A stretch of 64,000 bases of DNA from Lachnospiraceae bacterium (GTDB taxonomy: Bacteria > Bacillota > Clostridia > Lachnospirales > Lachnospiraceae): the NCBI GenBank assembly GCA_024698075.1, contig JAILRP010000082.1, positions 26,422 through 90,421 on the forward strand. Direction: 5' to 3'. How positions within the stretch are numbered: position 1 is the stretch's first letter; each line of letters begins with the position of its first letter. Shown piece after piece: positions 855 to 45,573 of the stretch. The position numbers and the translations under genes were made by a program. Under the pieces are notes generated by a model. It was not told the origin of the DNA and searched no databases. It was given only the letters and a program-made list of their open reading frames with translations.

Positions 855-871
855 CTGATCCCTCTCCCCTT

Positions 872-2101: not shown

Positions 2102-2113
2102 AACACACCACCA

Positions 2114-2560
2114 TCATTTATTGAAATTCACTATATTTTCGGTATTCAGGACAAAATCGTAATAGTTCAGGTCTTCGCGCTTTGTCCAGCCAATCGTCTT
2201 CCAGAAAGCGTTTCCGATATCGTTTGCCGTAAACGCTATTAGGCTCACCTTGCTTATCCGGTTCTTCTTAAGGGCGTTCATGCAGAAGGTGACCATAGCC
2301 TTGCCTATGCCCCGACGCCTGTAGTCGGGATGTACGCACACATGGTACAGGCATCCCCTTCTCCCGTCATGCCCGCACAGTATGGCGCCTACTATCTTCC
2401 CGTCGCATAAAGCGACAACGCTGGTATCCGGATTTCTTTCAAGAAATCTTTCGACGCCTTCCCTCGAATCATCAACGGAACGGATGGCGAAGCCCCTGAT
2501 CGTCATCCAGAGGGCATGTACCTCTTCATAATCTTGTGCTGTCATCAGTCTTATCTGCAT
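2114..2560 (-). CDS. GNAT-family N-acetyltransferase, first gene of the argJ-argB operon
   Basis: 148 aa, single GNAT domain with the acetyl-CoA motif YRRRGIGKAMV. It lies 12 nt upstream of argJ. Confidence 0.8.
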   Translation of the reverse strand: MQIRLMTAQDYEEVHALWMTIRGFAIRSVDDSREGVERFLERNPDTSVVALCDGKIVGAILCGHDGRRGCLYHVCVHPDYRRRGIGKAMVTFCMNALKKNRISKVSLIAFTANDIGNAFWKTIGWTKREDLNYYDFVLNTENIVNFNK

Positions 2561-2616
2561 ATCGTATCTCCGGACACCATTTCAGATTTTACAATAAAAG
2601 GATGAATAACTCAAAT

Positions 2617-2771
2617 TATGATTTTATGCAGTCCTTACTGCATTTTCTGCATATTATGCAAATATTTATGCATATTATGCATTTTCCATTTTACCCTTTT
2701 TACTCGCAATGTCAATACTTTTCGCAAACATTTCAGAATTTCTTCTTTCAAAAGGTATTGCATTTTATGCA
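2617..2771. promoter_or_regulatory. Cluster of TGCAT-N3-ATGCA palindromes in the divergent GNAT-argJ-argB / argG control region; candidate arginine-repressor operators
   Basis: Perfect TGCATATTATGCA at 2648-2660 and 2669-2681. TGCATTTTATGCA at 2759-2771. Imperfect TGCATTTTCTGCA at 2639-2651. A half-site-rich stretch at 2617-2630. All lie in the 298-nt AT-rich spacer between two arg transcription units. Confidence 0.5.
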
Positions 2772-2858
2772 GAAGTGATTTATATTATATACGATCTGAA
2801 GACAAAGCATCGGTGCGGCATGCCGGCCGGTGCCAAATGACAGGAGGTAATAAATATT

Positions 2859-4085: not shown

Positions 4086-4382
4086 ATGCAGGTACTCTTA
4101 TACATAGCAATCTACCTTCTGGCTATCAATCTGGCGGGCTTTACCGCAATGGGCATTGACAAGCGCAAAGCCCGCCGGAATAAATGGCGCATACCCGAAG
4201 CCACCCTGTTTCTTTTTGCCATATTCGGCGGAAGTCTCGGATGTCTTCTCGGAATGCACATCTTTCATCACAAAACACAGAAAAGCGCATTTTATATCGG
4301 AATTCCGGTCATACTGGGAATACAGCTCGTGATCGCACTGTATTTCTTCTTTCTGGCACCGCTGAAATTCCGCATACTGTGA
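4086..4382 (+). CDS. DUF1294-type small membrane protein
   Basis: 98 aa with three hydrophobic segments and KRKARRNKWRIPE...FGGSLG, typical of DUF1294. It lies 6 nt after argG. Confidence 0.75.
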   Translation: MQVLLYIAIYLLAINLAGFTAMGIDKRKARRNKWRIPEATLFLFAIFGGSLGCLLGMHIFHHKTQKSAFYIGIPVILGIQLVIALYFFFLAPLKFRIL

Positions 4383-4397
4383 CAGGGCAGGGATGAC

Positions 4398-5129
4398 ATG
4401 ACCATATATCTGGCAATCTGCGACAACAACATAGCCGACCGCAAACAGCTCGAGCGCCTGCTGTCCCGCGAAAAGGACAGGCGCCTTCGGGAAAACTATG
4501 ACGTCCTCTATATCGATTCATTCGGGAGCGAGGAAGCTCTTATGGCCACCCCCGTAAAATATGACATATTTTTCGTAGATGTGACCGAAGGTGCCTCAAA
4601 CGGGATCGAGATAGCCAAAAAGCTCAGGCAGCGCGGTATCAGCGCTCCCATTGTGCTCTGCCAGTCAACGATAAACTATTCTTCATATGTAAATGCCCCC
4701 GAAGACATCATATATATCGAAAAGCCCATCAACGCCGGGCAGGTGAGCCACCTTACGGACGTTGCATTCGAATGGTCAAAGCGCAAGGCCCCGCTCATCG
4801 AGATAAGATGTCAGAAAGACACCCGTTTCATCAGACATGATGAGCTTGTAAAGGCAACGCCCCTCGATAAGTTCCTGACCAGGATCAGCCTGTCTGACGG
4901 CGAATGCGTCGATATGACAGAGTCCCTTGCATCGCTCGAAGTACAGTGCATGTCCTTTGGATGTTTTGTCAGATGCGGGAGGGACCTCATTAACGTTTAC
5001 CACATCGAAGGAACATCCGGGCGCGGCTTCCGCCTTTCCAACGGTGATATAGTCACTTATTCATTCACCCAGAAGAATGCCATCATCAAAGCCATGGCGG
5101 ACAGCATCGGTACATGCAGGGAACATTAG
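4398..5129 (+). CDS. Orphan response-regulator-like protein with a C-terminal LytTR DNA-binding domain
   Basis: 243 aa. The N-terminal receiver-like fold (IYLAICDNN...IFFVDV...) is followed by a LytTR-like C-terminal half (IEIRCQKDTRFIRHDELV...RCGRDLINVYHI). No histidine kinase gene lies adjacent. Confidence 0.75.
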   Translation: MTIYLAICDNNIADRKQLERLLSREKDRRLRENYDVLYIDSFGSEEALMATPVKYDIFFVDVTEGASNGIEIAKKLRQRGISAPIVLCQSTINYSSYVNAPEDIIYIEKPINAGQVSHLTDVAFEWSKRKAPLIEIRCQKDTRFIRHDELVKATPLDKFLTRISLSDGECVDMTESLASLEVQCMSFGCFVRCGRDLINVYHIEGTSGRGFRLSNGDIVTYSFTQKNAIIKAMADSIGTCREH

Positions 5130-6410
5130 CGCCGCACTCTCCTCCGTTTTTTCATATTTCGCAACTGCCTTCCTTATCAGCTCCATGAGCTCTTCCATTT
5201 CCGTTCTGATACGGCGGAGCCGCTCACACACTCTTTCAAGCGCATGTTCTGCGTATATCCTCGTGCTTATCGTATATGCTATATCCCGGCGGATATTGTC
5301 CACCCGGTCGGCCGCACTTATGATGATCGGTACCTGCTCGGACATGAGCATGGCTGCCGCCCGGCATCTGTCGGCGTCAAGATACATGCTTCCCGTGGAT
5401 GCAAAACCGACGGCGTCTGATGCTGCCGCAGTCAGTTTCCGAACGAATTCCGCCGTGAGCATCCCCATAACCGGGGCAGCTGTATCCGATATATCCGCGT
5501 CGGGCGTTGTCAGCGCAAGAGATATGGCAAGGCCCGCCGCCCTGCTCATAACACCTTTATCCTCTGATTTCACGGGATCGAGCAGCCGGCACATGGCATC
5601 CGTAAGCCTCCCGAGGCCCTTTGAGACCGCTCCCTGGCTTCTTACGCTCGTAAAGCTCCCATCCGCACCGAAACTGTTCTCGGTAAGCAGGGTGACCGGT
5701 GAATGCGCATACGCAGGACCCGTGTCATTGGCAACGTATATGCATGTTCCCGCTATCCCCGTAAGAAGGATGTTCACAAAGTCATTGTATGCGCTTATCG
5801 ATATGATCTTAGGCGAGGCGGCGGCAACCGCGTCGGCATTTTCCCGTATGAACTCATCGCCGAAGCCCTGTCCGTCATAGGAAACGCAGCGGCTGATCCT
5901 GTCTGCGCTCTTTACCGTGACATACTGGGCAAGGTTCCCTCCCTTTGAATGTCCCGTCACCTCTATGTCTGAATATGCGCTGCATTCGCTTTCGATAAAA
6001 TCATCCGCAAGGGCCTGCAGTCTCGTGTCTTCGGCAAATGCCCCCTCAAAGTTGTCGGTCCATGCTTCCTTTGTCCCTCCGGTCCCCCGGAATACGACCA
6101 CCGGCTTCTCATCCCTGTCATCCGTGTAGCAGATGGCCCTTATGTCTTTCTCTTCAAGGCATCTGGCGGCCGAAAGCCTGCCGAATTCCGGATTTTCGCG
6201 GATCCGCTCATCCATCTTCTCAAATACCGCCTTCACTTCGGCGGTGCTCATCCCTCCGCCTGCGGCGGCGCCATAAACGCTCTCTTCGGTAAATCCTCCG
6301 CCGTCGGCCCTGAAAGAGCCGATTATGTCTTCAATCGGCCTTTCTGACAGGCATGCCGGTATATATATGAAATTTGATAAGAGAAGTAGTTCCTGTTCTG
6401 TATATGCCAC
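5061..6410 (-). CDS. DUF2974/Mbeg1-like alpha/beta-hydrolase (lipase or esterase fold) with a C-terminal helical domain; candidate type VII secreted effector
   Basis: 449 aa. It has the N-terminal LLLLSNFIYIP signature, VVVFRGTGG, and the nucleophile elbow VTGHSKGGNLAQYV (GxSxG). The last ~150 aa are predicted helical and end ...ELIRKAVAKYEKTEES (YxxxE). No Sec-type signal peptide is visible. It is the last gene of the WXG100/EssC operon, 2 nt after the preceding gene. Confidence 0.75.
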   Translation of the reverse strand: MAYTEQELLLLSNFIYIPACLSERPIEDIIGSFRADGGGFTEESVYGAAAGGGMSTAEVKAVFEKMDERIRENPEFGRLSAARCLEEKDIRAICYTDDRDEKPVVVFRGTGGTKEAWTDNFEGAFAEDTRLQALADDFIESECSAYSDIEVTGHSKGGNLAQYVTVKSADRISRCVSYDGQGFGDEFIRENADAVAAASPKIISISAYNDFVNILLTGIAGTCIYVANDTGPAYAHSPVTLLTENSFGADGSFTSVRSQGAVSKGLGRLTDAMCRLLDPVKSEDKGVMSRAAGLAISLALTTPDADISDTAAPVMGMLTAEFVRKLTAAASDAVGFASTGSMYLDADRCRAAAMLMSEQVPIIISAADRVDNIRRDIAYTISTRIYAEHALERVCERLRRIRTEMEELMELIRKAVAKYEKTEESAALMFPACTDAVRHGFDDGILLGE

Positions 6411-6412
6411 TC

Positions 6413-7699
6413 TTACTCTATTCCCACTACATAGGTGTAAGCGCCGGCGGTGAGCCTGTCGCCGTCGGAGAGCTTCTTTTCCGAAACCCTTACTCCGTTG
6501 ACTCTTGTTCCGTTTGCAGACTTTAAGTCTCTGACAAAAACGCTTCCGTCATCTTCATACAGCTCGAAGTGTCTCCTTGAAAGCGCATCGTCGTCTATAA
6601 CCACATCGCAGTCTCCTCTGCCTACCGTCATCGGATAAGAAAGGGCTGCGGTATATTTTCCGTCAGATGCTCTTCCGCCTGTCAGCGTCACCACCCTTCC
6701 GTTCTCATACAGAAGCCGCGTGGATCCCGCGTCACCATCATCAAGCACTGTGGTGCCCGCTATGTCAAAATCACCGAAGAATTCCTCCTCACGCTCCTGC
6801 ACTCTTACAATCCCACTGCGCTTCTTCTTCATGACCGCAAAGCCTCCGAGGATGCCGGCAGTAAGTCCGGCGAGGACAAGTGCCGCGGAGAGGATGAGCG
6901 CACCGGTTCCGGCAAAGAAATGCGGTGTCCTCTCATATTCGTATACGACTCCCTCCTCTTCAAAAGGCCCTTCCATATATTCTTCCGGACCGATCTCATC
7001 GTACTCGCCGTATTCTTCTTCGTAGGTCTGCCCTTCATCTTCGCCGGCATATCCGTCCGTTTCTTCGTATGCTTCGTATCCCTCATCCCCGGCGGGCTCA
7101 TCCTCTTCCTCATACCGGCTCCACCAGGCCCTGCTGTATTCATCCATCGCCGAAAAGACCATTTCGGTAAGCTGTCTGTCTACTTCCGCATCCGAGCCTT
7201 CGAACTCAGATTCAAACAGCCGTCCTCCGCTTGTCACCGCAACCGCCGACAGACCCTTCTTTGCCGCTGCATTATCCTCCTGATCTAGCATCACCACATA
7301 GACCGGGTACCCGCTCTTTTCGAGCAGATAATACAGCTCTTCCTTCTCATGTGAGATCATTCCGCCCTCGAGACCGTCCGTGAACACTACTATGTCCCTG
7401 CAGGCAAAATCGGATGACCTCCACCGAAGTATCACTTCACAGAGCGTATCTCCAAGGTTAGAATCCTTCGGTCCGAACTCAATGCCGTCAAGGGTGCACA
7501 TAAGATCATTCGCATCCCCCGTGAAGCTTTCTTCTTCCGATACGTCATGCTCGTATGTGCTGAGGCAGAATGCCCTGTCCTCCGGAAGATGGTAGAACAT
7601 ATATTTAAGCGTTGCCTTTGCAATCTTTTGGCTGACCGGGCCAAGCGTCGCATCATTGTCGAGAAGGACCAGGGTCTGTCCGCATACCCGCATGCTCAA
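6413..7699 (-). CDS. Membrane protein: N-terminal vWA-like domain, Glu/Tyr-rich acidic linker, one TM helix, C-terminal FHA domain
   Basis: 428 aa. The vWA-like elements are LVLLDNDATLG (DxDxT in the MIDAS position) and IVVFTDG. The acidic low-complexity stretch is YEEEDEPAGDEGYEAYEETDGYAGEDEGQTYEEEYGEYDE. The TM helix is GALILSAALVLAGLTAGILGGFAV followed by MKKKR. The FHA signature is VGRGDCDVVIDD..LSRRHFEL...SANGTRVNG. The FHA call is firm. The vWA call is tentative. Confidence 0.7.
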   Translation of the reverse strand: MSMRVCGQTLVLLDNDATLGPVSQKIAKATLKYMFYHLPEDRAFCLSTYEHDVSEEESFTGDANDLMCTLDGIEFGPKDSNLGDTLCEVILRWRSSDFACRDIVVFTDGLEGGMISHEKEELYYLLEKSGYPVYVVMLDQEDNAAAKKGLSAVAVTSGGRLFESEFEGSDAEVDRQLTEMVFSAMDEYSRAWWSRYEEEDEPAGDEGYEAYEETDGYAGEDEGQTYEEEYGEYDEIGPEEYMEGPFEEEGVVYEYERTPHFFAGTGALILSAALVLAGLTAGILGGFAVMKKKRSGIVRVQEREEEFFGDFDIAGTTVLDDGDAGSTRLLYENGRVVTLTGGRASDGKYTAALSYPMTVGRGDCDVVIDDDALSRRHFELYEDDGSVFVRDLKSANGTRVNGVRVSEKKLSDGDRLTAGAYTYVVGIE

Positions 7700-8010
7700 C
7701 TTATCGCAGCCGCGGAAAGGCTGCCTGCAAGACTGCCACTCTCCGATTCGGCCTGAATGTATTCGTTAGCCATCTCGGTCAGGTCCTCCGAGTGTTTTCT
7801 GATGATCGCATAAAGCCTGTTCATATCGGATGAAAGTGACGAGAACCTGTTTGCGAATCCGGTCGCCGCCTCACCCTGCCATACTGGCTTGAAGCTTTCC
7901 ACGATGGATATCATCTCCTCCGTCAGGTTTCTTATCACCGTTTCGGTATTCATAAACTCCGACGCGGCCTCGATCAGTTTTTCCGGCGTTACTTTGAGCA
8001 TTTTTTCCAT
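7696..8010 (-). CDS. WXG100 (EsxA-like) protein
   Basis: 104 aa, helical, with the central motif VWQGEAATGF and the C-terminal EYIQAE (YxxxE). It overlaps the downstream gene by 4 nt. Confidence 0.85.
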   Translation of the reverse strand: MEKMLKVTPEKLIEAASEFMNTETVIRNLTEEMISIVESFKPVWQGEAATGFANRFSSLSSDMNRLYAIIRKHSEDLTEMANEYIQAESESGSLAGSLSAAAIS

Positions 8011-8297
8011 TACATGACCCTCCCTGTATTCCTGCGCTCCGCCATGTCATATCTGTCGGCGATATAGCCTATCACCTCCAGATAGCGGCTAATGACTTCA
8101 ATGAAAGAATCCATCTGTCCTGCATTTCTCATGAACTGCTCGTGAAAGCTGTCGTTTGCGGCACCTTCCCACATGGATCTGAGCGAAAGTTCCTTTGAAC
8201 AGAGTATATCCTTTTCCTGCCTGAACTTCTGAAGAAGAGCTGTCAGCTCATCCTTCTTGCCCCTCAGCCTCACGCTGTCGACTTGATAAAATGACAT
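8010..8297 (-). CDS. WXG100-like small helical protein
   Basis: 95 aa with the central MWEGAANDSF and the C-terminal RYDMAE (YxxxE). It overlaps the next gene by 1 nt. Confidence 0.75.
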   Translation of the reverse strand: MSFYQVDSVRLRGKKDELTALLQKFRQEKDILCSKELSLRSMWEGAANDSFHEQFMRNAGQMDSFIEVISRYLEVIGYIADRYDMAERRNTGRVM

Positions 8298-8344: not shown

Positions 8345-8650
8345 TCAAAAGCAGACCGATGCGGCCGCTTTTTCAGCCTTGTATACAATGTCGGCAGTCG
8401 CTCTGATATTTCTGGCGATACGCATAAGATCGTCTGCAGTACTGTATATTTCGGCCGTCGTCCTTTTTCCTGCCAGCTCTATTGACCCACCTGCATCACC
8501 CCTCCAGCTATTCTTCAGAACGAGGAGCGCCGACTCGACTCCGCTGTTCGCGGCACGGCTCAGGCTGTCCGCCAGACGTTCGAGCTCCTGGGCCTGGTTT
8601 ATGGCTCTTGAAAAATCCATTTCTATCTCTCTTTTGCTTTTTTCTGTCAT
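8345..8650 (-). CDS. WXG100-like small helical protein
   Basis: 101 aa with the central SWRGDAGG. The RBS and coding pattern are consistent with operon membership. Confidence 0.7.
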   Translation of the reverse strand: MTEKSKREIEMDFSRAINQAQELERLADSLSRAANSGVESALLVLKNSWRGDAGGSIELAGKRTTAEIYSTADDLMRIARNIRATADIVYKAEKAAASVCF

Positions 8651-8943
8651 AGTCCGTATTCCTTTATCATCATCATAACTTCCCTTTCACATCCTCCGTA
8701 CAGCGCATACGCTTCCCTGGCAGCGCGGACCGCCTCTCCTATCCTGGCAGTATATATGCCTGCGGAAGCCATATCGCTGTCAATGGCGGACATGAAAGCC
8801 TCGTTTGCATCGCCGTCCCAGAAGATGTCCAGATACGCGGCATATCCGGCTATCCTTCCAACTTCTTCATGCAGTTTCATATAAAGCTGCGTGAGCCGTT
8901 CAAGCTTTTCCCAAAGCGGAACATACTCAATACTCATCCTCAA
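8647..8943 (-). CDS. WXG100-like small helical protein
   Basis: 98 aa with the central FWDGDANEAF and the C-terminal LYGGCE (YxxxE). It overlaps the flanking genes by 4 and about 11-17 nt. Confidence 0.7.
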   Translation of the reverse strand: MRMSIEYVPLWEKLERLTQLYMKLHEEVGRIAGYAAYLDIFWDGDANEAFMSAIDSDMASAGIYTARIGEAVRAAREAYALYGGCEREVMMMIKEYGL

Positions 8944-9160
8944 TTCCGATCATCACCCCGCTTCCGTCACAGAGCCCGGCATCAGCCAGACTCATCTCAT
9001 CAGGCAGCTCTCCGCGGCCCGAAAACATTATGAAACAGTTGTTTTTTAATGAGAAAAAACTTCTCACAAATTTCTTAAGATCCCCTACGCAGATCGATTC
9101 CGAGACCCTCATCCACAGCCTCCTGTCCTCTGCCGGAATGATCAATTCTATAGATATCAT
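8927..9160 (-). CDS. YukD/EsaB-like ubiquitin-fold (beta-grasp) protein
   Basis: 77 aa. Its size, its position directly after the EssC-like gene, and the C-terminal pattern LPDEMSLADAGLCDGSGVMI match the YukD family. Confidence 0.7.
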   Translation of the reverse strand: MISIELIIPAEDRRLWMRVSESICVGDLKKFVRSFFSLKNNCFIMFSGRGELPDEMSLADAGLCDGSGVMIGIEDEY

Positions 9161-9179: not shown

Positions 9180-12100
9180 TTACTGGATTTGTGAGTTATC
9201 CACATCAAATGCCACCGGTATCTTTATGTTCCCGAAAAACTGTTTTTCATCGAATTTCATAACTGTTGCAATCCCTCTTGCATGTGACTTTTGCATGTCT
9301 GAAAACGGCATGTATGAAAAGTCAAAATTCCTGTTCTCATCGATGCTTCCCCCGAAGTGTATTACGTACGGATGAACGGCTGCGGCATCATATATCTTCC
9401 TCCCGAAATGACGTGAGCCGGCATCATTTTCCATCACCGCCATCACGAGGGGGCCGTGTCCGTCCCACATGGGACTGTTCTCAAAAAAACCTGCCATCTC
9501 ATCTTCTTCTGCAGTGCTCCTGCTGACAGAGTAAAAATCATCTAGCAGCTCCGAAAAGCTTCCTACGGACACTATGCCTCCGTCTTCCATATCACGGCAG
9601 GCCGCGATAAAGCTCAGGTATGACTTTGCGTCCACATATTTTCTGCCGATAAGTGCCGCGGTCACGGAGACATTGAACAGGAACGTGTGCCTTCCCTTAT
9701 ATGGCTTGCCGCCGATCAGTATGCACCTGACAGAGCCAAGCGGCAGCCCAAACACCCTTCCGGTCAGGATCTCATAGCCCGCAGGGAAGATGTCAGTCTC
9801 GGCAGATGCTTCAAGCAGGTGCTCAAGAGTGGGATCATCCGGAAGGTGCGGGTATTTGGGGGCGTCCGTTCCTCCGGGTTCCGGCTCTTTGCCGTCTCTT
9901 ACTGCCTGAAACTCGAGCACTGAACCTGACAGCATTCCCACTCCGCGTCCCGCATATCCTGGGATCTCCGGAATCTCAGCCGCACTTACCCTGAAGAAAG
10001 AGGCTTCCCGGTATATGTCGCTTCCGGCGAGGAACAGACAGGTATCAAACAGCCTCTCCTCCCTTTCCGGTACCGGAGCGGGGGCCGAGGCCAACACCGT
10101 GATGCCGACGCTGCGTCCCAGCATGAGGATGCGCGTTATGTACTCGGCTGAAGAAGGCGCGGCATTTCTGATCCCGTTAAGATCATCCAGGACAAGCACT
10201 ATTCCGGTGCCGCCTCCGCTCTTTCTCCGCCTTGTGAGCTCATCCGACACAAAGATCGCCATGCGAAGTATGTCGGATACCGCATCATCCGTTATATATC
10301 CCCCGCACCAGCTGCACTTTTCCAGCTTTTTGAGCTTTCCTCCGCCAAAGTCGATGATGTATACGGCATATCTTCCCTTAATCCTTCTGAGCAGCGTATT
10401 TATGAGCTCGCTCTTGCCGCTGCCGCTCCGTCCGGTGATAAGGACATTTCCCATCTCTTCGGGAGAATAAAACGCCCGGACGTATCTCTGCGACGCAGGA
10501 TCGTCATATATGGCATAGGCTTCGCTGTCTGAAATCTCCTGCGGGAGCGGAGGAAGAAACAGGCTGCTGCCGTGCCGGATCCCGGCAGTTTCCGCCGCAT
10601 CCCCTATCGCCCTCATCACGAGGTCAAACCATGTCCCTGCGTTATCTCCCGGAGCGTATTCACCCCCTATCTCCTGTTCAAACAGAAGATCCTCATATAC
10701 CCGCGGCCTCTCACCAGCATTACCGGCAACAGACATCGCATAACCGCTCTGAAATTCTGCAGTGCCGGTTGAATTTCCGGCAAGGATGCACCGGCCGCAT
10801 TCTTTTATCGAGGCTGCATCCGGCCGGCCTATGATATCGACCGAATCCGACCTCTCAACGAGCCTTAAGGCTATCCTGAACCCGGAATTGCTTCTTATCC
10901 TTTCATCCACAACACCCGCAGGCTTCTGTGTGGCAAGTATCAGATGCATTCCCAGGCTTCTTCCTATCTGCGAAACGCTGATCAGGCTGTCCATAAGATC
11001 CGGTTCTTCCCTTCGAAGCTCCGCAAACTCATCAACTATTATCAGGATGTGGGGGAGCGGATCGGGGGCCGCCTTGGCATCATACAGCCTCGTATAATCG
11101 TTTATGCTGTTGACGCCTGATGCTGCAAAGATCTTCTGTCTGCGCAGGTTTTCGCTCTTCAGCGCTTTCATTGCCCTGCGTGCATCGATCCTCGAAAGAT
11201 TGGAGATGCTTCCCACAAGATGTGGAAGTCCCTCAAACAGATTTGACATTCCGCCGCCCTTGTAATCTACGAGAAAAAAGGCCAGCTTGTCCGGAGGATA
11301 CCTTGAGGCTAATGACAGGATTATGGTTGTCAGAAGCTCGCTCTTGCCGCTTCCGGTCGTTCCCGCTATAAGGCCGTGGGGGCCGTCTGCCTTCTCATGA
11401 ATGTCAAGGATGACTTTTGCCCCTCCCGGACCAAGCCCTATAGGGGCATATAATGAAGCAGTCGTGTCACTTTCCCTGTATGCGGAAAGGACAGATCCGG
11501 ACAGGTTCCGCGCATCTGCTCCCGGCGGAAGGCCGAGCAGACGTCCGAAGGGGACTTTTTCGGGGATCCCGCCTTCAGTTTCAGACCCTGCCCTTGCAAG
11601 CTGTGAGGCAAACGAAAAGCACATTTCCGGACTGAGCATGTCACACCTGATATCATTCTCCGGCCCGTTTACCGAACATGCAGTCCCGGCAGGGATGCCT
11701 TCCGACCTGGCTATTGCAAGTATCACGGCCCGGCCCTGTGCGGCATGAGCGTATGCCTCCGAAAGATCTCCTGTCACGATCAGGGCCTGTGTGGCGTCAT
11801 CCGCCGGTACATGGGGCAGAAGAGACGTCCACATATAATACCTCATGAGCTCCCCTGCAAGGCTTAAGGCTATCTTAAAGCTATGGGGCGGATATTTGAC
11901 CGCAGCCTGCAGAATGAAGGCCGCAAGTGCCTGCCTGTCATCTTCCGTGTCAAGCCAGAACACCGACAGGCTTCCCTTTGCAAGCCTTACGAGCACCGGG
12001 CAGTCCGGTATGCTCTCATACCTGCGCCCAAGCTCGGCGGGAAGATCTTTAAGGGAATCATCCACTCCGGCGAATCTTTCCTTTGGGACGCTGATCCTGA

Positions 12101-12950
12101 CCGGATTTGGTATCCTTCCGATCCCGGCTCTTACCTCTACGGCCGTATCACCTGCCGGCGGTGTGGCCCATATCATGCATCCTCCGTTCTCCTTAAGATA
12201 TCCGCCGACCTGAGGATATATGCGGGCAAGAGCCTCCGACGCCTCCTTTGTCCTTGCCTTCACGGTCTCCTCACAGGCTTCAAGGTATGATATGTATGTG
12301 CTCCTCCTGCGCCTTTCCTCGGCCTTCTGTCTCCTTGTCCGTCCCATGACATTGACTGCGGCCCAGATCGCCGCAAAGACCGAAGAGAGGACTGCCACAG
12401 TCCTTCCCGCTCCGAGCAGTATCGGGACTGCCATCGTAAGCGCCGGACCTGCTGAGAGCAGTACCGAAGGCTTCTCAGGCACCCTTCTCGGAGGCGGTGC
12501 GTCTATCTCAACCGACGGAGGGGGCTCATACAGGGCCTGGGTCATGGGGATGCGGATATTCTCTGCAGGCTCGCTCCCTCCCGTCCAGATGATGCTGTGC
12601 TCTCCGATCCTTATGCGGTCTCCTACCCTGATGTGGCACCGGCTTCCTTTATTCACTTTTTCTCCTCTTATCACGGCCCCGTTCGTGCCCAGTACTTCAA
12701 CTGATGCCACATCATGCCTGATGCTGCGGATACAAAGGTGAACCCTTGATATGAACGGGTCGGTAAGATGAAGGTCACTGTTTTGGTCCCTCCCGACCAG
12801 AAGAGGTGACCTCTCTCCGGAAAGGTAAAAAACACCCACTGTATTCTCCGGCTGATATAGGATTAACGATAATCTGGAATCATTGCGATGCGTCCAACGC
12901 AAGATGAGATCTAGAAAAAAGAATTCCGTTTGTGGAACGAATGATATCAC
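9180..12950 (-). CDS. essC: EssC/YukB-like FtsK/SpoIIIE-family type VII secretion ATPase with an N-terminal FHA domain
   Basis: 1256 aa with a GTG start. The FHA signature is VGRDQNSDL...ISRVHLCI...GTNGAVIRG. The TM region is LSAGPALTMAVPILLGAG..VLSSVFAAIWAAV. P-loop 1 is GLIAGTTGSGKSELL with Walker B ILIIVDEFAEL. P-loop 2 is ITGRSGSGKSELINTLL with VLVLDDLNG. The third domain has a degenerate Walker A (IGGKPYKGRHT). Confidence 0.88.
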   Translation of the reverse strand: MISFVPQTEFFFLDLILRWTHRNDSRLSLILYQPENTVGVFYLSGERSPLLVGRDQNSDLHLTDPFISRVHLCIRSIRHDVASVEVLGTNGAVIRGEKVNKGSRCHIRVGDRIRIGEHSIIWTGGSEPAENIRIPMTQALYEPPPSVEIDAPPPRRVPEKPSVLLSAGPALTMAVPILLGAGRTVAVLSSVFAAIWAAVNVMGRTRRQKAEERRRRSTYISYLEACEETVKARTKEASEALARIYPQVGGYLKENGGCMIWATPPAGDTAVEVRAGIGRIPNPVRISVPKERFAGVDDSLKDLPAELGRRYESIPDCPVLVRLAKGSLSVFWLDTEDDRQALAAFILQAAVKYPPHSFKIALSLAGELMRYYMWTSLLPHVPADDATQALIVTGDLSEAYAHAAQGRAVILAIARSEGIPAGTACSVNGPENDIRCDMLSPEMCFSFASQLARAGSETEGGIPEKVPFGRLLGLPPGADARNLSGSVLSAYRESDTTASLYAPIGLGPGGAKVILDIHEKADGPHGLIAGTTGSGKSELLTTIILSLASRYPPDKLAFFLVDYKGGGMSNLFEGLPHLVGSISNLSRIDARRAMKALKSENLRRQKIFAASGVNSINDYTRLYDAKAAPDPLPHILIIVDEFAELRREEPDLMDSLISVSQIGRSLGMHLILATQKPAGVVDERIRSNSGFRIALRLVERSDSVDIIGRPDAASIKECGRCILAGNSTGTAEFQSGYAMSVAGNAGERPRVYEDLLFEQEIGGEYAPGDNAGTWFDLVMRAIGDAAETAGIRHGSSLFLPPLPQEISDSEAYAIYDDPASQRYVRAFYSPEEMGNVLITGRSGSGKSELINTLLRRIKGRYAVYIIDFGGGKLKKLEKCSWCGGYITDDAVSDILRMAIFVSDELTRRRKSGGGTGIVLVLDDLNGIRNAAPSSAEYITRILMLGRSVGITVLASAPAPVPEREERLFDTCLFLAGSDIYREASFFRVSAAEIPEIPGYAGRGVGMLSGSVLEFQAVRDGKEPEPGGTDAPKYPHLPDDPTLEHLLEASAETDIFPAGYEILTGRVFGLPLGSVRCILIGGKPYKGRHTFLFNVSVTAALIGRKYVDAKSYLSFIAACRDMEDGGIVSVGSFSELLDDFYSVSRSTAEEDEMAGFFENSPMWDGHGPLVMAVMENDAGSRHFGRKIYDAAAVHPYVIHFGGSIDENRNFDFSYMPFSDMQKSHARGIATVMKFDEKQFFGNIKIPVAFDVDNSQIQ

Positions 12951-26019: not shown

Positions 26020-27420
26020 TCAGCCGCTGACATCTTCCACAATATTCTGCATCCATATTCCGCTCGCGGAGATCGCAAATCCTATACCGACCTTCAGCAG
26101 GGCAGTTCCCTCACATAACGCATAGATGGTAACGATATCAAGGCCCGTATACCTTGTCAGGAAAAATGCCATCGGTACGCCGATGACCATCAGGAATGCA
26201 CTGTCAAACAGGAAGGTTATAAATGTCCTTCCTCCGGCCCTTATCGTAAAGTACAGGCTGTGGCACAGGCCGAAGAGCGGCATAAGCGCTCCCGTCACTT
26301 TCAGAAAATCAGTGGCCAGATGCTTTACCTCCGATGTGGTATTATAAAGTTCAGGCAGAAGATGCGCGACAAAGAACAGTACCGTTCCCATCACGGCGCA
26401 GGAAAATGTAACGAATACATTGATCTTTGTGCCTGTATCCTTTGCCTCTTTCATCTTTCCGGCACCTAAGAGCTGTCCTACCATGATCGCGACCGCATCC
26501 CCGAACGCTATGAAGCATATGGAAAATACGTTGAAAAAAGTGGAGTTTATGTTCATCCCCGCAACAACCGCAAGCCCGCGCGTGGAGTAACTCTGCTTCT
26601 GGAGAACTATGCCTATTGACCACAGTGATTCGTTTAAAACGAGCGGAAGCCCGGTTATGCATATCTTCCTGACAAGCCCGCCCGAAACACGGAACGTGGC
26701 ATATGCGCCTTTTATGTATGGCTTGACATCGCTGTGCCTGTGGGTCCATATGATGACGATGAGCGCCTGGACGATGCGTGAGATAGAAGTTGCTATGGCT
26801 GCACCCACGACACCGAGCACGGGAAAGCCGAATTTTCCGTATATAAGCACATAGTTGAGCACAAGGTTTATGAACACCGCGGCGAAGCTTGCCCGCATCG
26901 GAATGACGGTCTCACCTGTCTCTCGAAGCGTCGATGAGTAGACCGATTCGGCCGCCTGCGGCAGAAGCCCGAAAAGCATAAACATCATGTAAACATGCCC
27001 GTATTCAAGCGTCGCCGAAAGATTTCCGGACTGCGATCCCTCATGCAGGTAGTACGATATCAGCGTCCTGTCCATAGTTCCGAAGACAGCGATCCCGCAG
27101 ACCATGATGAGTGCGCATATGATGACCTTGATCCTGAAAGTATCCCTTACCCCGTCATTGTTTCTCTGCCCGTGGTACTGTGCGGTAAATATTCCGGCAC
27201 CGCTTATGGCGCCGAACAGGCACAGCATGTAAACGAACATCAGGTCATTTACTATCGAGACACCTGACAGCTGCTCGGTGCCTATCCGCCCGACCATCAG
27301 GTTGTCGAGCATGTTGACGATGTTCGATATCCCGTTCTGGGCCATTATCGGCAGGGCTATCGCGAAAAGCTCCTTATAGAATTTTTTGTCTCCAATGAAT
27401 CTACGCATGAAAAATCCCAT
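26020..27420 (-). CDS. MATE family efflux transporter
   Basis: About 465 aa, 12 TM, with ALPIMAQNGISNIVNMLDNLMVG typical of MATE. The start is uncertain (ATG at 27420 or 27408). The TTG start used in the ORF track lies inside the 32-bp palindrome. Confidence 0.85.
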   Translation of the reverse strand: MGFFMRRFIGDKKFYKELFAIALPIMAQNGISNIVNMLDNLMVGRIGTEQLSGVSIVNDLMFVYMLCLFGAISGAGIFTAQYHGQRNNDGVRDTFRIKVIICALIMVCGIAVFGTMDRTLISYYLHEGSQSGNLSATLEYGHVYMMFMLFGLLPQAAESVYSSTLRETGETVIPMRASFAAVFINLVLNYVLIYGKFGFPVLGVVGAAIATSISRIVQALIVIIWTHRHSDVKPYIKGAYATFRVSGGLVRKICITGLPLVLNESLWSIGIVLQKQSYSTRGLAVVAGMNINSTFFNVFSICFIAFGDAVAIMVGQLLGAGKMKEAKDTGTKINVFVTFSCAVMGTVLFFVAHLLPELYNTTSEVKHLATDFLKVTGALMPLFGLCHSLYFTIRAGGRTFITFLFDSAFLMVIGVPMAFFLTRYTGLDIVTIYALCEGTALLKVGIGFAISASGIWMQNIVEDVSG

Positions 27421-27422
27421 AG

Positions 27423-27492
27423 CAAGTGTCAAGGGGACGGTTCTTTTGACACACTGTTTAGTGTGTCAAAAGAACCGTCCCCTTGACACTTG
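27423..27492. repeat. Perfect 32-bp inverted repeat with a 6-nt loop
   Basis: 27423-27454 (CAAGTGTCAAGGGGACGGTTCTTTTGACACAC) pairs without mismatch with 27461-27492. It lies 17 nt past the 3' end of tRNA-Thr and just upstream of the MATE start. No U-tract follows it. Confidence 0.95.
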
Positions 27493-27509
27493 ACACTGAT
27501 TAATGCAAG

Positions 27510-27582
27510 TGCTGACGTCGGGAATCGGACCCGAGACCTCCGCACTACCAATGCGGTGCGCTACCTACTGTGCCACGTCAGC
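27510..27582 (-). tRNA. tRNA-Thr (anticodon GGU), atypical
   Basis: I folded it by hand: acceptor GCTGACG/CGTCAGC, anticodon stem CCGCA/TGCGG with loop TTGGTAG, T stem TCGGG/CCCGA. It deviates in two places: a D stem GCAC/GCGC with one A-C mismatch, and a T loop TCCGATT with C at the position normally U55. CCA is not encoded. Confidence 0.65.
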
Positions 27583-27592
27583 AGACTAAGAG

Positions 27593-27622
27593 ATTTTATC
27601 ACAGGATATGGGGAAAAGTCAA
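27593..27622 (-). promoter_or_regulatory. Candidate sigma-A promoter for tRNA-Thr
   Basis: On the minus strand, TTGACT (27622-27617), an 18-nt spacer, then TAAAAT (27598-27593). The tRNA 5' end lies about 11 nt downstream of the -10. Confidence 0.5.
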
Positions 27623-27632
27623 TCAGGACCTG

Positions 27633-28604
27633 TCACTTTTTCATCCTGTTACGAAGCGCCCTCGCCACCCTTCTCGGAAGGTAGAGGATACGGTCTATCT
27701 TCTGGTGGAATCTGGCCTCGTCCTCATAATACTTTCCCTGGTATATCCTGTTGCGCCTGATGGCATCTATGGGCTCCTGTGAACAGATTTCTTTCAGAAA
27801 GTCAGCCACATATCCTTCTTCAAGGCATTTTCGTGCACTTGAATCCTCGCGCAGTATCGGTGCTTTTGCCATTTTCAGGTAAAGGCTGTCGTCGCCGTCG
27901 ACTTTCTTTATGAACTCCACCGCCTCGTCAAAACCGGCAAAATCATGACAGTTTATGAAGCTTTCTGGATTGAACTCCCCTGCGATGTCAGGGTTTCCCC
28001 AGTATATCGGGACAGATCCCGCCGCAAAGCTTTCCATGATCTTTTCGGTGGTATAGCCGCGTGAGCCGCTGTTCTCAAATGCAAGTGAGAATCTGTAACC
28101 CTTTGAAAAATCTATCTTGTCGGCAACAGGGCCCCCAACGTTGTTGTGATATCTTCCGCCCGATGCGAGTTCTTTATACTTCCCGAGCTTTTCGATCATG
28201 ATGCCCCTCTCGGGTGCGGAGATCGCATTGCTTATGACATAGCTTGCAAAGCCGCGGTCTGTAAGCTCTTCATCGCTCATGTACGGCTTTTTCAAAGCAA
28301 GCGTGCAGGCACGGGGATACAGCACATAGTGCGGAAGGCGCAGATACCTGTCATAAAAACTGATGTCGGGAAAGCCCATGCCGTAGTCGACGAGGTTGAA
28401 ATCCGGAGCTATGTTCTCACCCGTATAAAATATCCTCGCACAGTCATACTTAAGGTATTTCCTTCCGAAGATCGAGCAGAAAACAAAGTCGGGATCCTCT
28501 GATATTTCGACCTCGAAATTCTTTGAAAGCGCATCCGTTATGAAATTGTCATTGGGATCGAACACGTCCCAGAAATCCGAAAAAGCTATCTTTATCTTTT
28601 TCAT
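27633..28604 (-). CDS. Glycosyltransferase family 10 (alpha-1,3/4-fucosyltransferase-like)
   Basis: 323 aa. FYTGENIAPDFNLVDYGMGF and FSLAFENSGSRGYTTEKIMESFAAGSVPIYWGNP closely mirror the two conserved blocks of Helicobacter FutA/FutB-type GT10 enzymes. The ATG overlaps the sigH stop (ATGA). Confidence 0.85.
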   Translation of the reverse strand: MKKIKIAFSDFWDVFDPNDNFITDALSKNFEVEISEDPDFVFCSIFGRKYLKYDCARIFYTGENIAPDFNLVDYGMGFPDISFYDRYLRLPHYVLYPRACTLALKKPYMSDEELTDRGFASYVISNAISAPERGIMIEKLGKYKELASGGRYHNNVGGPVADKIDFSKGYRFSLAFENSGSRGYTTEKIMESFAAGSVPIYWGNPDIAGEFNPESFINCHDFAGFDEAVEFIKKVDGDDSLYLKMAKAPILREDSSARKCLEEGYVADFLKEICSQEPIDAIRRNRIYQGKYYEDEARFHQKIDRILYLPRRVARALRNRMKK

Positions 28605-29206
28605 TTTTCCAGTATCTTTCTGACCTTGACCTTTATCCTTGACAGCGCGTTGTCTGTCGATTTTTCATCCCGTCCGAGTATTTTTGCAATGGATGTATAT
28701 GCAAGTCCGGTAAGGCGCAGGTTCAGCACCTTCCGTTCAAAGTCGCTGAGGCTGTCATATATCTTCTGCTCAAGATCTTCGGCCTGCTCCTTATCTATCA
28801 CCATGTCTTCGGTGCTCATGCCGTCCTGGGAGAGGAGCATTTCCGGTATTCCCTCTCTGTCATCGGACTCGTCATCCTCGTAGATGGATATATAAGAGTT
28901 CAGGGGGGCATGCTTCTTGCGGTTGCCGGCTTCGACCGCCTTATACATCTGCCTCGAAACGCACAGGTCCGCAAACGTATAGAAGCTCGCATCCCTTCCC
29001 GCGTCATAGTCACGCACCGCTTTATAAAGGCCGATCATCCCTTCCTGGATAAGGTCTTCCTTGTCCGCGCCGAGTATGAACATGCTTCCGGCCTTTCGGC
29101 GCACGAGCTCCTTGTATTTTTCGATCAGATGGTCGATGACTTTTCCGTCACCGTCACGAAGGGCAATGATGAGTTCCTCATCGGTCATTGATTCGTAATT
29201 GGTCAT
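28601..29206 (-). CDS. sigH: RNA polymerase sigma factor SigH (sigma-30 type)
   Basis: 201 aa. DLIQEGMIGLYKAVRDYD (region 2) and a region-4 HTH. The conserved position after rlmB matches Bacillus. Confidence 0.88.
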   Translation of the reverse strand: MTNYESMTDEELIIALRDGDGKVIDHLIEKYKELVRRKAGSMFILGADKEDLIQEGMIGLYKAVRDYDAGRDASFYTFADLCVSRQMYKAVEAGNRKKHAPLNSYISIYEDDESDDREGIPEMLLSQDGMSTEDMVIDKEQAEDLEQKIYDSLSDFERKVLNLRLTGLAYTSIAKILGRDEKSTDNALSRIKVKVRKILEK

Positions 29207-29224
29207 ATCCCTTACCTGCCGGCA

Positions 29225-29974
29225 TCATTTTGCCTGAGAACGCCTCTGCCTTACGGCTTCGAACATGAGGATGCCTGCTGCTACCGAAGCGTTCAGTGAA
29301 TCGATGTCACCCTTCATCGGTATCGAGCAGACCATGTCACACTTTTCCTTAACGAGCCTGCTGACACCGCTGCCTTCCCCGCCTATGATAAGTCCTATGG
29401 GGCCGGTAAGGTTCAGGTCATACATGCAGTCTCCGTCCATGTCGGCGCAGGCAAACCATATCCCGCGCTTTTTGAGTTCCTCCATGGTACGCACGATGTT
29501 CGTGACTTTCGCCACGGGCGTATAGTTTATCGCTCCGGCACTGGCCGCGGCAACAACTGCGGTAAGTCCGACGGCGCGGTTCTTCGGTATGATCACCCCA
29601 TGTGCGCCCGCAAGATTTGCGCTTCTTATTATCGCGCCGAGGTTATGCGGATCCTCTATCCCGTCAAGAATGATGATGAACGGGTCCTCACCCTTATCTT
29701 CCGCCTTCTTAAGGATGTCATCGACATCAGCATACTCATACGCAGCGCATTTTGCTATGACACCCTGATGGTGGCCGGTGGTGCTCATCGAATCGAGCCT
29801 TTCCTTTTCGACGAACTTCACCTGGACATCAAGCTTTCTGGCTTCGCGCTTTATCGTTGATATTGGGCCGTCATTGCATCCGTCGAGTATGAACAGCCTG
29901 TCGATCGGTTTTTTTGCGCGGAGCGCCTCTATGACCGGATTACGGCCTTCTATGGTAAATTCTTCGTATCCCAT
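29225..29974 (-). CDS. rlmB: 23S rRNA (guanosine-2'-O)-methyltransferase, SpoU/TrmH family (RlmB/YacO)
   Basis: The start MGYEEFTIEGRNPV overlaps the mrnC stop (TAATG) and has the RBS GGAGAGG. The SpoU motifs are ILDGIEDPHNLGAIIRS and LIIGGEGSGVS. Confidence 0.88.
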   Translation of the reverse strand: MGYEEFTIEGRNPVIEALRAKKPIDRLFILDGCNDGPISTIKREARKLDVQVKFVEKERLDSMSTTGHHQGVIAKCAAYEYADVDDILKKAEDKGEDPFIIILDGIEDPHNLGAIIRSANLAGAHGVIIPKNRAVGLTAVVAAASAGAINYTPVAKVTNIVRTMEELKKRGIWFACADMDGDCMYDLNLTGPIGLIIGGEGSGVSRLVKEKCDMVCSIPMKGDIDSLNASVAAGILMFEAVRQRRSQAK

Positions 29975-30420
29975 TATATTTCCTCTCCGTTCTGCGCTCC
30001 TTCCCGGCAGCATATATGGATGAGCTCTATCACCCTTTCCATATCCCCCTTAAGGTACAGATAGCCTATGAGCGCCTCGAGTCCCGTGGCCTTCCGGTAG
30101 TCGCCTGTCGGAGCATTCTTGGCAGTCGTCCGCGGATTGGCATTCCTGCCGCGCCTGTATACCGCAAGCTCCTCTTCAGTCAGAAGCCCGCTTTCGGTCA
30201 GATAGTCTGCCGCCGCGGCCTGGCTCACCGCCTTGATGTACTTTACCGCTTTCTTGTCCAGCCTGTTCGCGGGACAGTTTCCGTCAAGGACCACGGCCGT
30301 CTTTACAACGGCCCCGTATATGCTGTCACCGATAAACGCGAGCGACAGCGGGGAATACTGTCCGGGGTCCCCACCTTCAGGACCGAATTTTTCTTTGATG
30401 GATGCTAACAGATCAGCCAT
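29974..30420 (-). CDS. mrnC: Mini-ribonuclease 3
   Basis: 148 aa. LSLAFIGDSIYGAVV is the RNase III-like catalytic motif. The conserved cysS-mrnC-rlmB order is present. Confidence 0.88.
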   Translation of the reverse strand: MADLLASIKEKFGPEGGDPGQYSPLSLAFIGDSIYGAVVKTAVVLDGNCPANRLDKKAVKYIKAVSQAAAADYLTESGLLTEEELAVYRRGRNANPRTTAKNAPTGDYRKATGLEALIGYLYLKGDMERVIELIHICCREGAQNGEEI

Positions 30421-44852: not shown

Positions 44853-45573
44853 TTTTCTCCAGTTTGTTGAATATCTTTGTCTTCGCTTCTCCGGTGGAAA
44901 GATCGGTGAAACGGACAAAAAGCGATACCTTGTTATCAAGGTTCAGGCTCTCCCAGAGCCTGTTGGAAAATGACTCGAAATCTCCCTCGATCCCGACGAA
45001 TTTAGGCTCACCCTCAAATGAAGGAAGCGGATTGCCGTCCCTCATGTATGTGTGGATAAAATGCCCCTCTCCGGCAAGAGGACTGTCATATGAGAACGTA
45101 TAGCGCAGGCACTGTTCCGGATTGCCGTTGTCACTCTTTAATATCGAAAGCTCATAGGAGAACTTCCCATTCTTAACATCCATGATGCCCGATATCCTCG
45201 GCGTATAATTGGGCGCGTCCGGTTCGAACTCGCGGGACCTTAATGCCTGCTCAAAAGTCAGGCCGTCCTTCAGCCCGTCATATACCGTGTCGGTCTGGTC
45301 ACCATTGGTTATGACCGTCGTGCTGCCGAGCACCCTTACAGGCGAATAGATGATGAGCGAAGGATCCTCAACCGCTGCCTCGTCAAAGGCTTTTGTGCGT
45401 ATTCCGTCTCCGTCTTCCACAAATACCCTGTTCCTGGAATTGGCACTCCTTCCCATAATAAAATATGCCGAAACGGCATATTTTCCGTCCGAAGACCTTC
45501 CTATGACGATACCCCTTCCGGGATATGAATTTAAATCGAGTTCCTTAAACAGATTGATCTTCTCCATAGTCAT
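44836..45573 (-). CDS. purO: IMP cyclohydrolase, PurO (archaeal-type) family
   Basis: 245 aa. NSYPGRGIVIGRSSDGKYAVSAYFIMGRSANSRNR is typical of the PurO-type IMP cyclohydrolase family. The ATG overlaps the upstream stop (ATGA) and the RBS is GAGGGAGG. Confidence 0.8.
   Translation of the reverse strand: MTMEKINLFKELDLNSYPGRGIVIGRSSDGKYAVSAYFIMGRSANSRNRVFVEDGDGIRTKAFDEAAVEDPSLIIYSPVRVLGSTTVITNGDQTDTVYDGLKDGLTFEQALRSREFEPDAPNYTPRISGIMDVKNGKFSYELSILKSDNGNPEQCLRYTFSYDSPLAGEGHFIHTYMRDGNPLPSFEGEPKFVGIEGDFESFSNRLWESLNLDNKVSLFVRFTDLSTGEAKTKIFNKLEKNDERA

Follow-up and report, generated by a model that had tools for sequence, protein, structure and literature searches.

The subtypes T7SSc–j of type VII secretion systems (T7SS) were defined by Garrett, Higginson & Palmer 2024 from RefSeq genomes (PMC11217815). 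In a number of them, kinases, PPM phosphatases, FHA proteins (TsxJ, composed of DUF6382 and FHA) or a soluble vWA protein, TscE, are encoded, and there are T7SS variants in which canonical FHA domains of the EssC ATPase are paired with kinases, PPM phosphatases and FHA proteins (PMC11217815). According to the same authors, the targets of these kinases, phosphatases and FHA proteins are unknown in several non-canonical variants (PMC11217815). The contact of EssB with the degenerate FHA domains of EssC is presumably not regulated by phosphorylation (PMC11217815). GarA and OdhI have a proven phospho-switch: the kinase PknG phosphorylates an ETTS motif in their disordered N-terminal extension, and this turns the FHA protein off (PMC5448819). 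The present work deals with a gene found in 64,000 nucleotides of a Lachnospiraceae bacterium (contig JAILRP010000082.1, positions 26,422 to 90,421; the whole stretch is hereafter called the window). Its product carries a vWA domain, an acidic linker, a single transmembrane (TM) helix and an FHA domain, and apart from EssC it is the sole membrane subunit of a compact T7SS cassette. On balance, this vWA–TM–FHA protein probably serves the EssC ATPase as an adaptor or scaffold under phosphothreonine control, in the niche that EssB, and perhaps EsaA, holds in T7SSb and without homology to either.

An EssC/EccC-type FtsK ATPase and a WXG100 protein are encoded in one operon, which identifies the locus as a T7SS. 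The cassette is formed by eight co-directional, tightly packed genes, whose order is essC, a YukD-like gene, four WXG100-like genes, the vWA–TM–FHA gene and the gene of an Mbeg1-like lipase. The same eight genes, in the same order, are present in 16 of 16 close loci, belonging to 15 species-representative genomes and one metagenome contig. The 15 genomes are all metagenome-assembled genomes (MAGs) of rumen or gut Lachnospiraceae, and identity to the vWA–TM–FHA protein of the window goes down to 34%. The genes flanking the cassette are syntenic in most loci and different in the most distant one (L001), so the eight genes behave as one unit. The nine sister-group and intermediate places examined all lie in WXG100 clusters, EssC being present wherever the contig extends far enough. 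The original prediction had placed the protein in a secretion operon and raised the question of co-occurrence; the link with essC and WXG100 genes is strict. Neither the cassette nor the 64-kb window contains EssB, EsaA or EssA, which makes an EssB-like role of the vWA–TM–FHA protein plausible.

The EssC protein of the cassette matches TIGR03928 (E 2e-138) with 463 bits against an equivalog cut-off of 778, and it is thus a divergent EssC. As had been predicted, it opens with an FHA domain. This single FHA domain conserves GR, SRxH and NG in 13 of 13 sequences, that is, a canonical phosphothreonine (pThr) pocket. The EssC proteins of the sister group are 1533-1668 aa long. Ahead of the Pfam FHA match they carry about 110 further residues at the N-terminus, which are possibly a second, degenerate FHA domain.

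The four elements originally described at 6413-7699 (vWA, acidic linker, TM helix and FHA) were all found. The strand calls for a correction: the open reading frame runs on the minus strand, and the plus-strand translation of 6413..7699 is rich in stops. In the sequence TTGA, the TTG codon at 7699 shares letters with the stop codon TGA of the WXG100 gene upstream, and two codons later comes ATG 7693, which is the start of the database copy P0001 (426 aa, 100% identity). Residue numbers given here follow this 426-aa form. Conservation was judged on an alignment of 47 homologues, which was also the basis of an AlphaFold2 model with a mean predicted local distance difference test score (pLDDT) of 81. 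In this model, residues 1-190 form an alpha/beta domain (pLDDT >90), residues ~200-250 are disordered and residues 263-293 form a long helix; the C-terminal part comprises a disordered segment (299-325) and a beta-sandwich (333-425).

The FHA domain is strongly recognised. Pfam FHA (PF00498) matches residues 358-418 of the 428-aa form with E=4.4e-18 and 65.9 bits, the cut-off being 20.7, and the pocket residues G358, R359, S372, H375, N394 and G395 are invariant among the homologues. The beta-sandwich is modelled with a pLDDT of about 90-97, and its Foldseek matches are GarA, OdhI and FhaA (E about 1e-9, TM-score 0.73-0.86 on the target). The domain is canonical, as first proposed from its GR...SRRH...NG signature, with an intact pThr pocket, and peptide binding is predicted.

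The N-terminal domain was initially described as vWA-like, and this assignment is borne out by modelling. Pfam VWA_2 reaches only E=0.037 and 15.1 bits, below its 27-bit cut-off, and a profile of the domain finds among PDB sequences just a marginal collagen VI vWA match (E 0.41), so a comparison of folds was needed. The modelled order of secondary structures (beta1-alpha1-beta2-beta3-alpha2-alpha3-beta4-alpha4-beta5-alpha5-beta6-alpha6) is that of the vWA fold. Foldseek matches in PDB are ITIH1, alpha2delta-1, TFIIH p44/Ssl1, BatB, TEM8, Rpn10 and ArnB (E 2e-9 to 1e-7, TM-score on the target 0.6-0.72). The strand and helix order and these matches together confirm a predicted vWA fold. In addition, two distant relatives that the vWA-profile search ties to the protein (E 1e-53 to 1e-44) score above the Pfam VWA cut-off of 23.8 bits, P0130 with 34.2 bits and P0135 with 41.7 bits. 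At the metal ion-dependent adhesion site (MIDAS), which was to be inspected together with the fold, the motif is non-canonical: D12-N-D14-A-T16 instead of DxSxS, plus D82/T83 and T105-D106-G107. The clade of the target has D12-N-D14-x-T16, D82/T83 and D106, whereas its sister clades have the canonical D-N-S-L-S. A reading of DNDAT as the DxDxT motif of HAD phosphatases was ruled out by the vWA fold and by the DNSLS motif of the relatives.

The wider family was explored by an exhaustive HMMER search with the vWA-domain profile. It yielded 673 representative proteins, of which 337 match at E<=1e-10. Among the best 150 matches, about 116 show a signal peptide, a vWA domain with DNSLS, a TM helix and an FHA domain. 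Two groups can be distinguished. Group A (about 26 representatives, including the protein of the window) begins directly at strand beta-1 of the vWA domain. Group B, the majority, has a cleavable signal peptide, ~50 extra residues, the vWA domain, an extra beta region, the TM helix and the FHA domain, and its D-N-S-L-S MIDAS is almost invariant. For P0162, one of the Group B proteins, the AlphaFold2 model (mean pLDDT 79) has four strands on the N-terminal and three on the C-terminal side of the vWA domain; in our reading they would form a single sandwich with an inserted vWA. From there the chain continues through a disordered stalk, the TM helix and a disordered linker to the FHA domain. Structurally, P0162 is best matched by ITIH1, ArnB with its paralogue, and integrin beta subunits. 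The position of the vWA head outside the cytoplasm and of the FHA domain inside it is thus unambiguous for Group B. In Group A the signal peptide has been lost together with the two sandwich halves, while the linker has become more acidic. Its innermost sub-clade, to which the protein of the window belongs, has changed DNSLS to DNDxT and acquired two cysteines, C4 and C98. This cysteine pair is limited to the sub-clade and both residues arose together, each of them one residue ahead of strand beta-1 or beta-4. These strands are neighbours in the canonical vWA sheet, and C4 and C98 may form a putative disulfide or metal site.

The segment located between the TM helix and the FHA domain is disordered and otherwise hypervariable, with two invariant exceptions, the motifs of T314 and T325. 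Both are candidate pT-x-x-L docking or switch sites, pT-x-x-L/I being a common ligand preference of FHA domains. Motifs of the type T-x-Φ-Φ occur in this linker in 141 of 143 Group A proteins (mean 22 and maximum 33 in shuffled sequences) and in 66 of 88 Group B proteins (mean 11.8, maximum 21); since the sequences are related, the comparison with shuffles overstates their independence and indicates conservation, not a probability. Two Group A variants lacking the FHA domain, L022 (4599-5615) and L030 (2352-3425), keep the same lipase-type cassette. In both, the vWA domain and the TM helix are followed by 50-70 aa of very basic tail, in which E-T-T-L-C-L and, at its end, E-T-x-L-L-F are kept. 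The persistence of the threonine motifs in these variants argues for a reader other than the FHA domain of the protein itself.

Enzymes that could write and erase phosphorylation are encoded next to the Group B genes. The seven distinct Group B loci are either of the lipase type (L017/L018 and L023/L024) or of the PP2C type. In the five PP2C-type loci (L019, L025/L026, L027, L028 and L029) the next gene downstream of the vWA–TM–FHA gene codes for a PP2C phosphatase. A Hanks-type kinase is present in the clusters of L025, L027 and L028, directly upstream of the gene in L027, and those of L025 and L028 bear TPR repeats. The L027 cluster also encodes an additional protein with Trypsin_2 and FHA domains (4097-5497, plus strand) and a 1326-aa LysM-containing protein, which suggests further FHA-based wiring and a link to the cell wall in some variants.

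With respect to topology, the protein has no signal peptide, as had been noticed. A missed one is excluded by an in-frame stop 23 codons upstream and by the non-hydrophobic nature of the intervening codons; besides, all 47 aligned homologues start at beta-strand 1 of the vWA domain. The acidic stretch, first estimated at ~60 aa of E, D, Y and G, has 64 aa, with 44% D/E, 16% Y and 14% G (73% for the four residues together). Its acidity is a family trait (mean 37% D/E), whereas the richness in Tyr and Gly is peculiar to this copy, and a conserved V-[IV]-Y-E motif closes it directly before the TM helix. The single helix followed by KKKR also stands as proposed: exactly one hydrophobic segment, of 20-33 aa, exists in 47 of 47 homologues, and in all of them the 15-residue flanks agree with the positive-inside rule (K+R 1.3 on the N-terminal side vs 5.9 on the C-terminal side, net charge -2.5 vs +3.7). 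A lipoprotein or LPXTG reading was discarded, as C4 lacks a lipobox context and the Gram_pos_anchor match (E 2.5) reflects only the TM plus KKKR pattern. Given a single span and a cytoplasmic FHA domain, the vWA head and its stalk, ~255 aa, should be outside. The earlier claim had about 270 aa, including the vWA domain, exposed; an outer vWA domain is secure only for the signal-peptide-bearing relatives, and for the copy of the window it is suggested by charge polarity.

All these data are consistent with the following mechanism, in which the vWA–TM–FHA protein serves EssC as adaptor or scaffold. The protein would expose a MIDAS-type vWA head on a flexible acidic stalk, connected through the TM helix to a disordered segment with threonine motifs and to the cytoplasmic FHA domain. 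A Hanks-type kinase, a dedicated one in the sister clusters and one that would have to be encoded elsewhere in the target organism, would phosphorylate the threonines of the linker. The pT-x-x-L sites could then be read in trans by the N-terminal FHA domain of EssC, so that the ATPase would be recruited or activated. The protein's own FHA domain might also read them, either in cis, as an off-switch similar to that of GarA/OdhI, or between protomers, leading to oligomerisation, and a PP2C phosphatase would reset the system. The vWA head, which is outside at least in the signal-peptide-bearing relatives, may contact a ligand, the cell wall or a target cell, and such a contact would anchor the machine or condition the switch.

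Several points weigh against this mechanism. No kinase or PP2C was found in the 64-kb window, either by a scan for Hanks motifs or with hidden Markov models of the PP2C and kinase proteins of the sister clusters, nor within 10 kb of the gene in 18 signal-peptide-less loci and in the lipase-type loci L017 and L023. Phosphorylation in the target organism is thus only assumed, not indicated. The prediction of a phospho-dependent gating or scaffold subunit, for which Hanks kinases and PP2C phosphatases were the enzymes to look for, agrees with the five PP2C and three kinase genes of the sister clusters and with the T-x-Φ-Φ motifs, but not with the gene content of the window. The AlphaFold2 model leaves the threonine motifs disordered. 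In the vWA head, the change from DNSLS to DNDxT means that metal or ligand binding may differ. Finally, the signal peptide is absent in the clade of the target, so the location of its vWA head is uncertain.

The protein could instead be an outside-in sensor without a structural function, whose vWA domain detects a cue (metal, wall fragment or neighbour cell) that the FHA domain and the threonines relay to turn secretion on, similarly to PpkA–Fha1–PppA in the Pseudomonas H1-T6SS. The coexistence of vWA, FHA, Ser/Thr kinase and PP2C in sister clusters speaks for it, as do the extracellular location of the vWA head and the almost invariant DNSLS MIDAS in the relatives with a signal peptide. However, the protein is the sole membrane protein besides EssC in a strict minimal cassette, which makes a structural role hard to exclude; a single TM helix between long disordered linkers is a poor conduit for conformational changes unless clustering occurs, and the lipase-type cassettes have no kinase or phosphatase. 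A function restricted to sensing is therefore considered fairly unlikely.

The lack of a signal peptide in the clade of the target is a genuine puzzle, and the vWA domain of this clade might remain cytoplasmic. In that case a cytosolic vWA plus FHA module would be tethered to the membrane by an unconventional anchor, comparable to the archaeal ArnB/ArnA pair or TscE. A region of ~255 aa with a folded domain far exceeds the natural bacterial N-tails known to cross the membrane without a signal (~100 aa in ProW). The signal-less vWA domains contain 3.9 cysteines per 185 aa vs 1.6 in the exported relatives, a weak and phylogenetically confounded signal of topology; they are also slightly more acidic, and both features admit either interpretation. 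The best structural matches include ArnB and ArnA, and T7SSc has a cytoplasmic vWA component (PMC11217815). On the other hand, a cytoplasmic head is difficult to reconcile with the hydrophobic segment. At 20-33 aa it is too short for a hairpin or re-entrant structure, and it is homologous to the true TM span of the signal-peptide-bearing relatives, with an unchanged positive-inside flank. An internal FHA domain and one span require the N-terminus to be outside, and the acidic linker, long enough to look like a stalk across the wall, takes the place of the relatives' beta-sandwich stalk. On these grounds, a cytoplasmic vWA domain is regarded as unlikely.

If the head is outside, the T7SS itself, or another non-Sec route, might export it, the protein being a TM-anchored surface adhesin or tip. 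T7SS export folded proteins without Sec signals; the Sec signal was lost within a T7SS operon, the gene's start is coupled to the WXG100 gene before it, and the domain is cysteine-richer and fold-competent. Nevertheless, neither Pfam nor the AlphaFold2 model detects a helical WXG/LXG-type targeting domain in the protein, and the insertion of a bitopic membrane protein by a T7SS has no known precedent; this speculative route seems very unlikely. A role as immunity protein of the adjacent lipase, like TilA/TilM for the staphylococcal T7SS lipases TslA/TslM, is highly improbable. In its favour, every lipase-type cassette has the gene as the direct upstream neighbour of the lipase gene, with no other immunity candidate, and the lipase immunity proteins known so far are anchored in the membrane and expose a globular domain outside the cell (PMC13560087). 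But five homologue clusters have PP2C next and no adjacent Mbeg1-like gene (the point that most weakens this idea), an immunity function would not account for the FHA domain, the threonine motifs or the linkage to kinase and phosphatase, the gene is single-copy and highly conserved rather than part of a polymorphic immunity array, and Pfam finds no match to DUF576 (TilA) or DUF1433 (TilM).

The adaptor or scaffold reading can be extended to an undescribed T7SS subtype in which EssC and the vWA–TM–FHA protein constitute a two-protein membrane machinery, the linker threonines are the switch, and the signal-less ectodomain of ~255 aa reaches the surface by a long reverse signal-anchor translocation or through the T7SS. 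This extended proposal, taken as a whole, is rather doubtful. The features of the locus are listed in Table 1.

Table 1. Features of the vWA–TM–FHA gene and of the other genes of the T7SS cassette (positions in the window; residues according to the 426-aa form)
Feature	Position (nt)	Strand	Remarks
Whole vWA–acidic linker–TM–FHA gene	6413..7699	minus	428 codons from TTG 7699; more likely 426 aa from ATG 7693
Predicted vWA-fold domain, residues 1-190	7124..7693	minus	AlphaFold2, Foldseek, conservation, HMM link to Pfam-positive relatives
Codons of C4 and C98	7682..7684 and 7400..7402	minus	
Disordered acidic linker, residues 193-256	6926..7117	minus	AlphaFold2 and composition
Single TM helix, residues 259-288, plus KKKR (289-292), stop-transfer/positive-inside cluster	6818..6919	minus	
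Disordered cytoplasmic linker with two Thr motifs	6698..6817	minus	AlphaFold2 pLDDT <50-51
Motif A-G-T314-T-V-L	6740-6760	minus	T314 invariant (47 sequences)
Motif G-S-T325-R-L-L	6707-6727	minus	T325 and L328 invariant (47 sequences)
FHA domain, residues 333-426, intact phosphothreonine pocket	6416..6697	minus	
EssC-type FtsK/SpoIIIE ATPase	9180..12839	minus	1219 aa; one N-terminal FHA domain, two TM helices
77-aa protein directly after essC	8927..9160	minus	Position of YukD in sister clusters; weak profile similarity
Four small helical WXG100-type genes, 95-104 aa	7696..8943 (8943..8647, 8650..8345, 8297..8010, 8010..7696)	minus	
Mbeg1-like alpha/beta-hydrolase, last gene of the cassette	5061..6410	minus	GHSKGG nucleophile elbow

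Some of the other cassette genes deserve comment. In the listed essC reading frame (9180..12950, from GTG 12950, 1256 aa) the first 37 codons probably do not belong to the gene; the start at GTG 12839 is preferred because homologues begin at 'MGVFY'. The 77-aa protein has no Pfam match and is probably the EsaB/YukD-type (ubiquitin-like) component, given that Pfam recognises YukD at the same position after essC in L017/L018 and L023/L024, where the lipase-type cassette is repeated. Among the four small genes, the last two are clear WXG100 members, whereas the first two match weakly and may encode partner proteins; the TIGR03930 (WXG100) score in the operon is 47.1 vs a cut-off of 44.85. The Mbeg1-like protein has an N-terminal lipase domain and a variable, probably helical C-terminal region of ~150 aa with a conserved YxxxE near its end. 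It resembles in domain arrangement the 'reverse' T7SS lipases TslA and TslM and is likely a secreted 'reverse-arrangement' lipase effector; no obvious immunity gene lies beside it.

The rest of the 64-kb window is occupied by housekeeping and surface-polysaccharide genes. Amid the latter, a GGDEF–EAL protein of 889 aa (45570..48239, minus strand) is unrelated to the cassette. A gene coding for 243 aa (4398..5129, plus strand) is convergent with the cassette and conserves its position in 13 related loci; by eye its product is receiver/LytTR-like, yet Pfam gives no match at E<=1e-3. A Pfam LytTR gene lies right after essC in the sister clusters L025 and L028. In L001, genes for MatE, a fucosyltransferase, sigma-70 and SpoU directly precede essC (82-4043). 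The window has the same set at 26020..30013 (minus strand), ~13 kb from essC, indicating a local rearrangement.

A fused vWA–TM–FHA protein and the eight-gene cassette are present in none of the ten published arrangements T7SSa–j (PMC11217815). Searches of the open-access full-text literature turned up no report on a system of this kind, on T7SS in Lachnospiraceae, on Mbeg1 in connection with T7SS or on subtypes beyond T7SSj, which amounts to absence of evidence. The protein is apparently the signature component of an undescribed T7SS arrangement from gut and rumen Clostridia. The assembly and activation of T7SSb-type machines are still open questions, and this family offers a compact case, with one ATPase and one bitopic partner, in which candidate phospho-acceptor motifs, readers and, in sister clusters, writer and eraser enzymes are encoded side by side. 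The paired clades with and without a signal peptide constitute a natural experiment on the export of large N-terminal ectodomains. The cassette occurs in many rumen and gut Lachnospiraceae MAGs, which the survey behind T7SSa–j, based on RefSeq, did not include; a common yet unstudied gut secretion or competition system, coupled here to a lipase, may thus be at hand.

Different parts of the vWA–TM–FHA protein have counterparts in known systems. ArnB (vWA and beta-sandwich) and ArnA (FHA) of Sulfolobus match both halves of the sister-group protein structurally (ArnB 8s05/5a8j, E 1e-12 to 1e-10; ArnA 5a8i, E 3e-8), and their vWA–FHA pairing is reportedly phosphorylation-dependent. However, ArnA and ArnB are two soluble cytoplasmic regulators of archaellum expression, while in this family both domains belong to one chain and are separated by the membrane. 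YscD/PrgH of the type III secretion system and GltG of Myxococcus gliding motility are also bitopic proteins of trans-envelope machines with a cytoplasmic FHA domain and an extracytoplasmic domain, and the protein matches Yop-YscD_cpl (E 4.6e-13) and GltG. In those proteins the FHA domain is N-terminal, the opposite order, and the periplasmic domains are ring-building and not vWA; the FHA domain of YscD has been described as pThr-independent.

GarA and OdhI of Actinobacteria are the closest FHA structures, and both they and the protein of the window possess a disordered segment with a threonine motif of the E-T-T-x-Φ-Φ type ~20-40 residues upstream of the FHA domain. The kinase of GarA, PknG, bears TPR repeats, like the kinases of the sister clusters. 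GarA is a small soluble regulator of tricarboxylic acid cycle enzymes, whereas the protein studied here is a 426-aa membrane protein and, with 39.8 bits vs the cut-off of 200 of NCBIfam OdhI, not a member of that family.

The H1 type VI secretion system of Pseudomonas aeruginosa, whose PpkA and Fha1 were invoked in the original prediction, shares with this family a vWA domain outside, a Hanks kinase, a PP2C and an FHA domain attached to the secretion machine. The comparison is valid as an analogy in domain content, but not as membership: it is a different secretion system in which vWA is fused to the kinase (PpkA) and Fha1 is soluble, while in this family vWA is fused to FHA, the kinase carries TPR repeats, and the locus of the window has neither kinase nor phosphatase.

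Within the T7SS, TsxJ (T7SSe/f/j; TsfJ has two TM helices) and TscE/TscD/TscF (T7SSc) are accessory FHA or vWA proteins of non-canonical clusters, which also encode Ser/Thr kinases and PPM phosphatases and whose EssC proteins bear canonical FHA domains. DUF6382 has no match in the protein or in 10 relatives, which separates them from TsxJ, and TscE is a soluble cytoplasmic vWA protein without FHA, in contrast to the membrane-bound combination of vWA and FHA found here. A functional counterpart would be EssB/YukC of T7SSb (Staphylococcus, Bacillus), also bitopic, encoded beside essC and provided with an extracellular domain and a cytoplasmic part that engages the FHA region of EssC, an engagement that in our protein is predicted. 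The absence of EssB, EsaA and EssA renders plausible the initial idea of a subunit that replaces EssB, but the two proteins are not homologous: EssB has a cytoplasmic pseudokinase, which is lacking here (kinase-like, YukC and EssB profiles gave no match at E<=10), and the orientation would be reversed, with the globular N-terminal domain outside and the C-terminal domain inside. The partner ATPase differs as well. EssC proteins of T7SSb have tandem degenerate FHA domains and the EssC of this cassette a single FHA domain with a canonical pocket, which sets the locus apart from T7SSb; unlike T7SSb EssC, both FHA domains of the present system, that of EssC and that of the vWA–TM–FHA protein, keep their pThr pockets.

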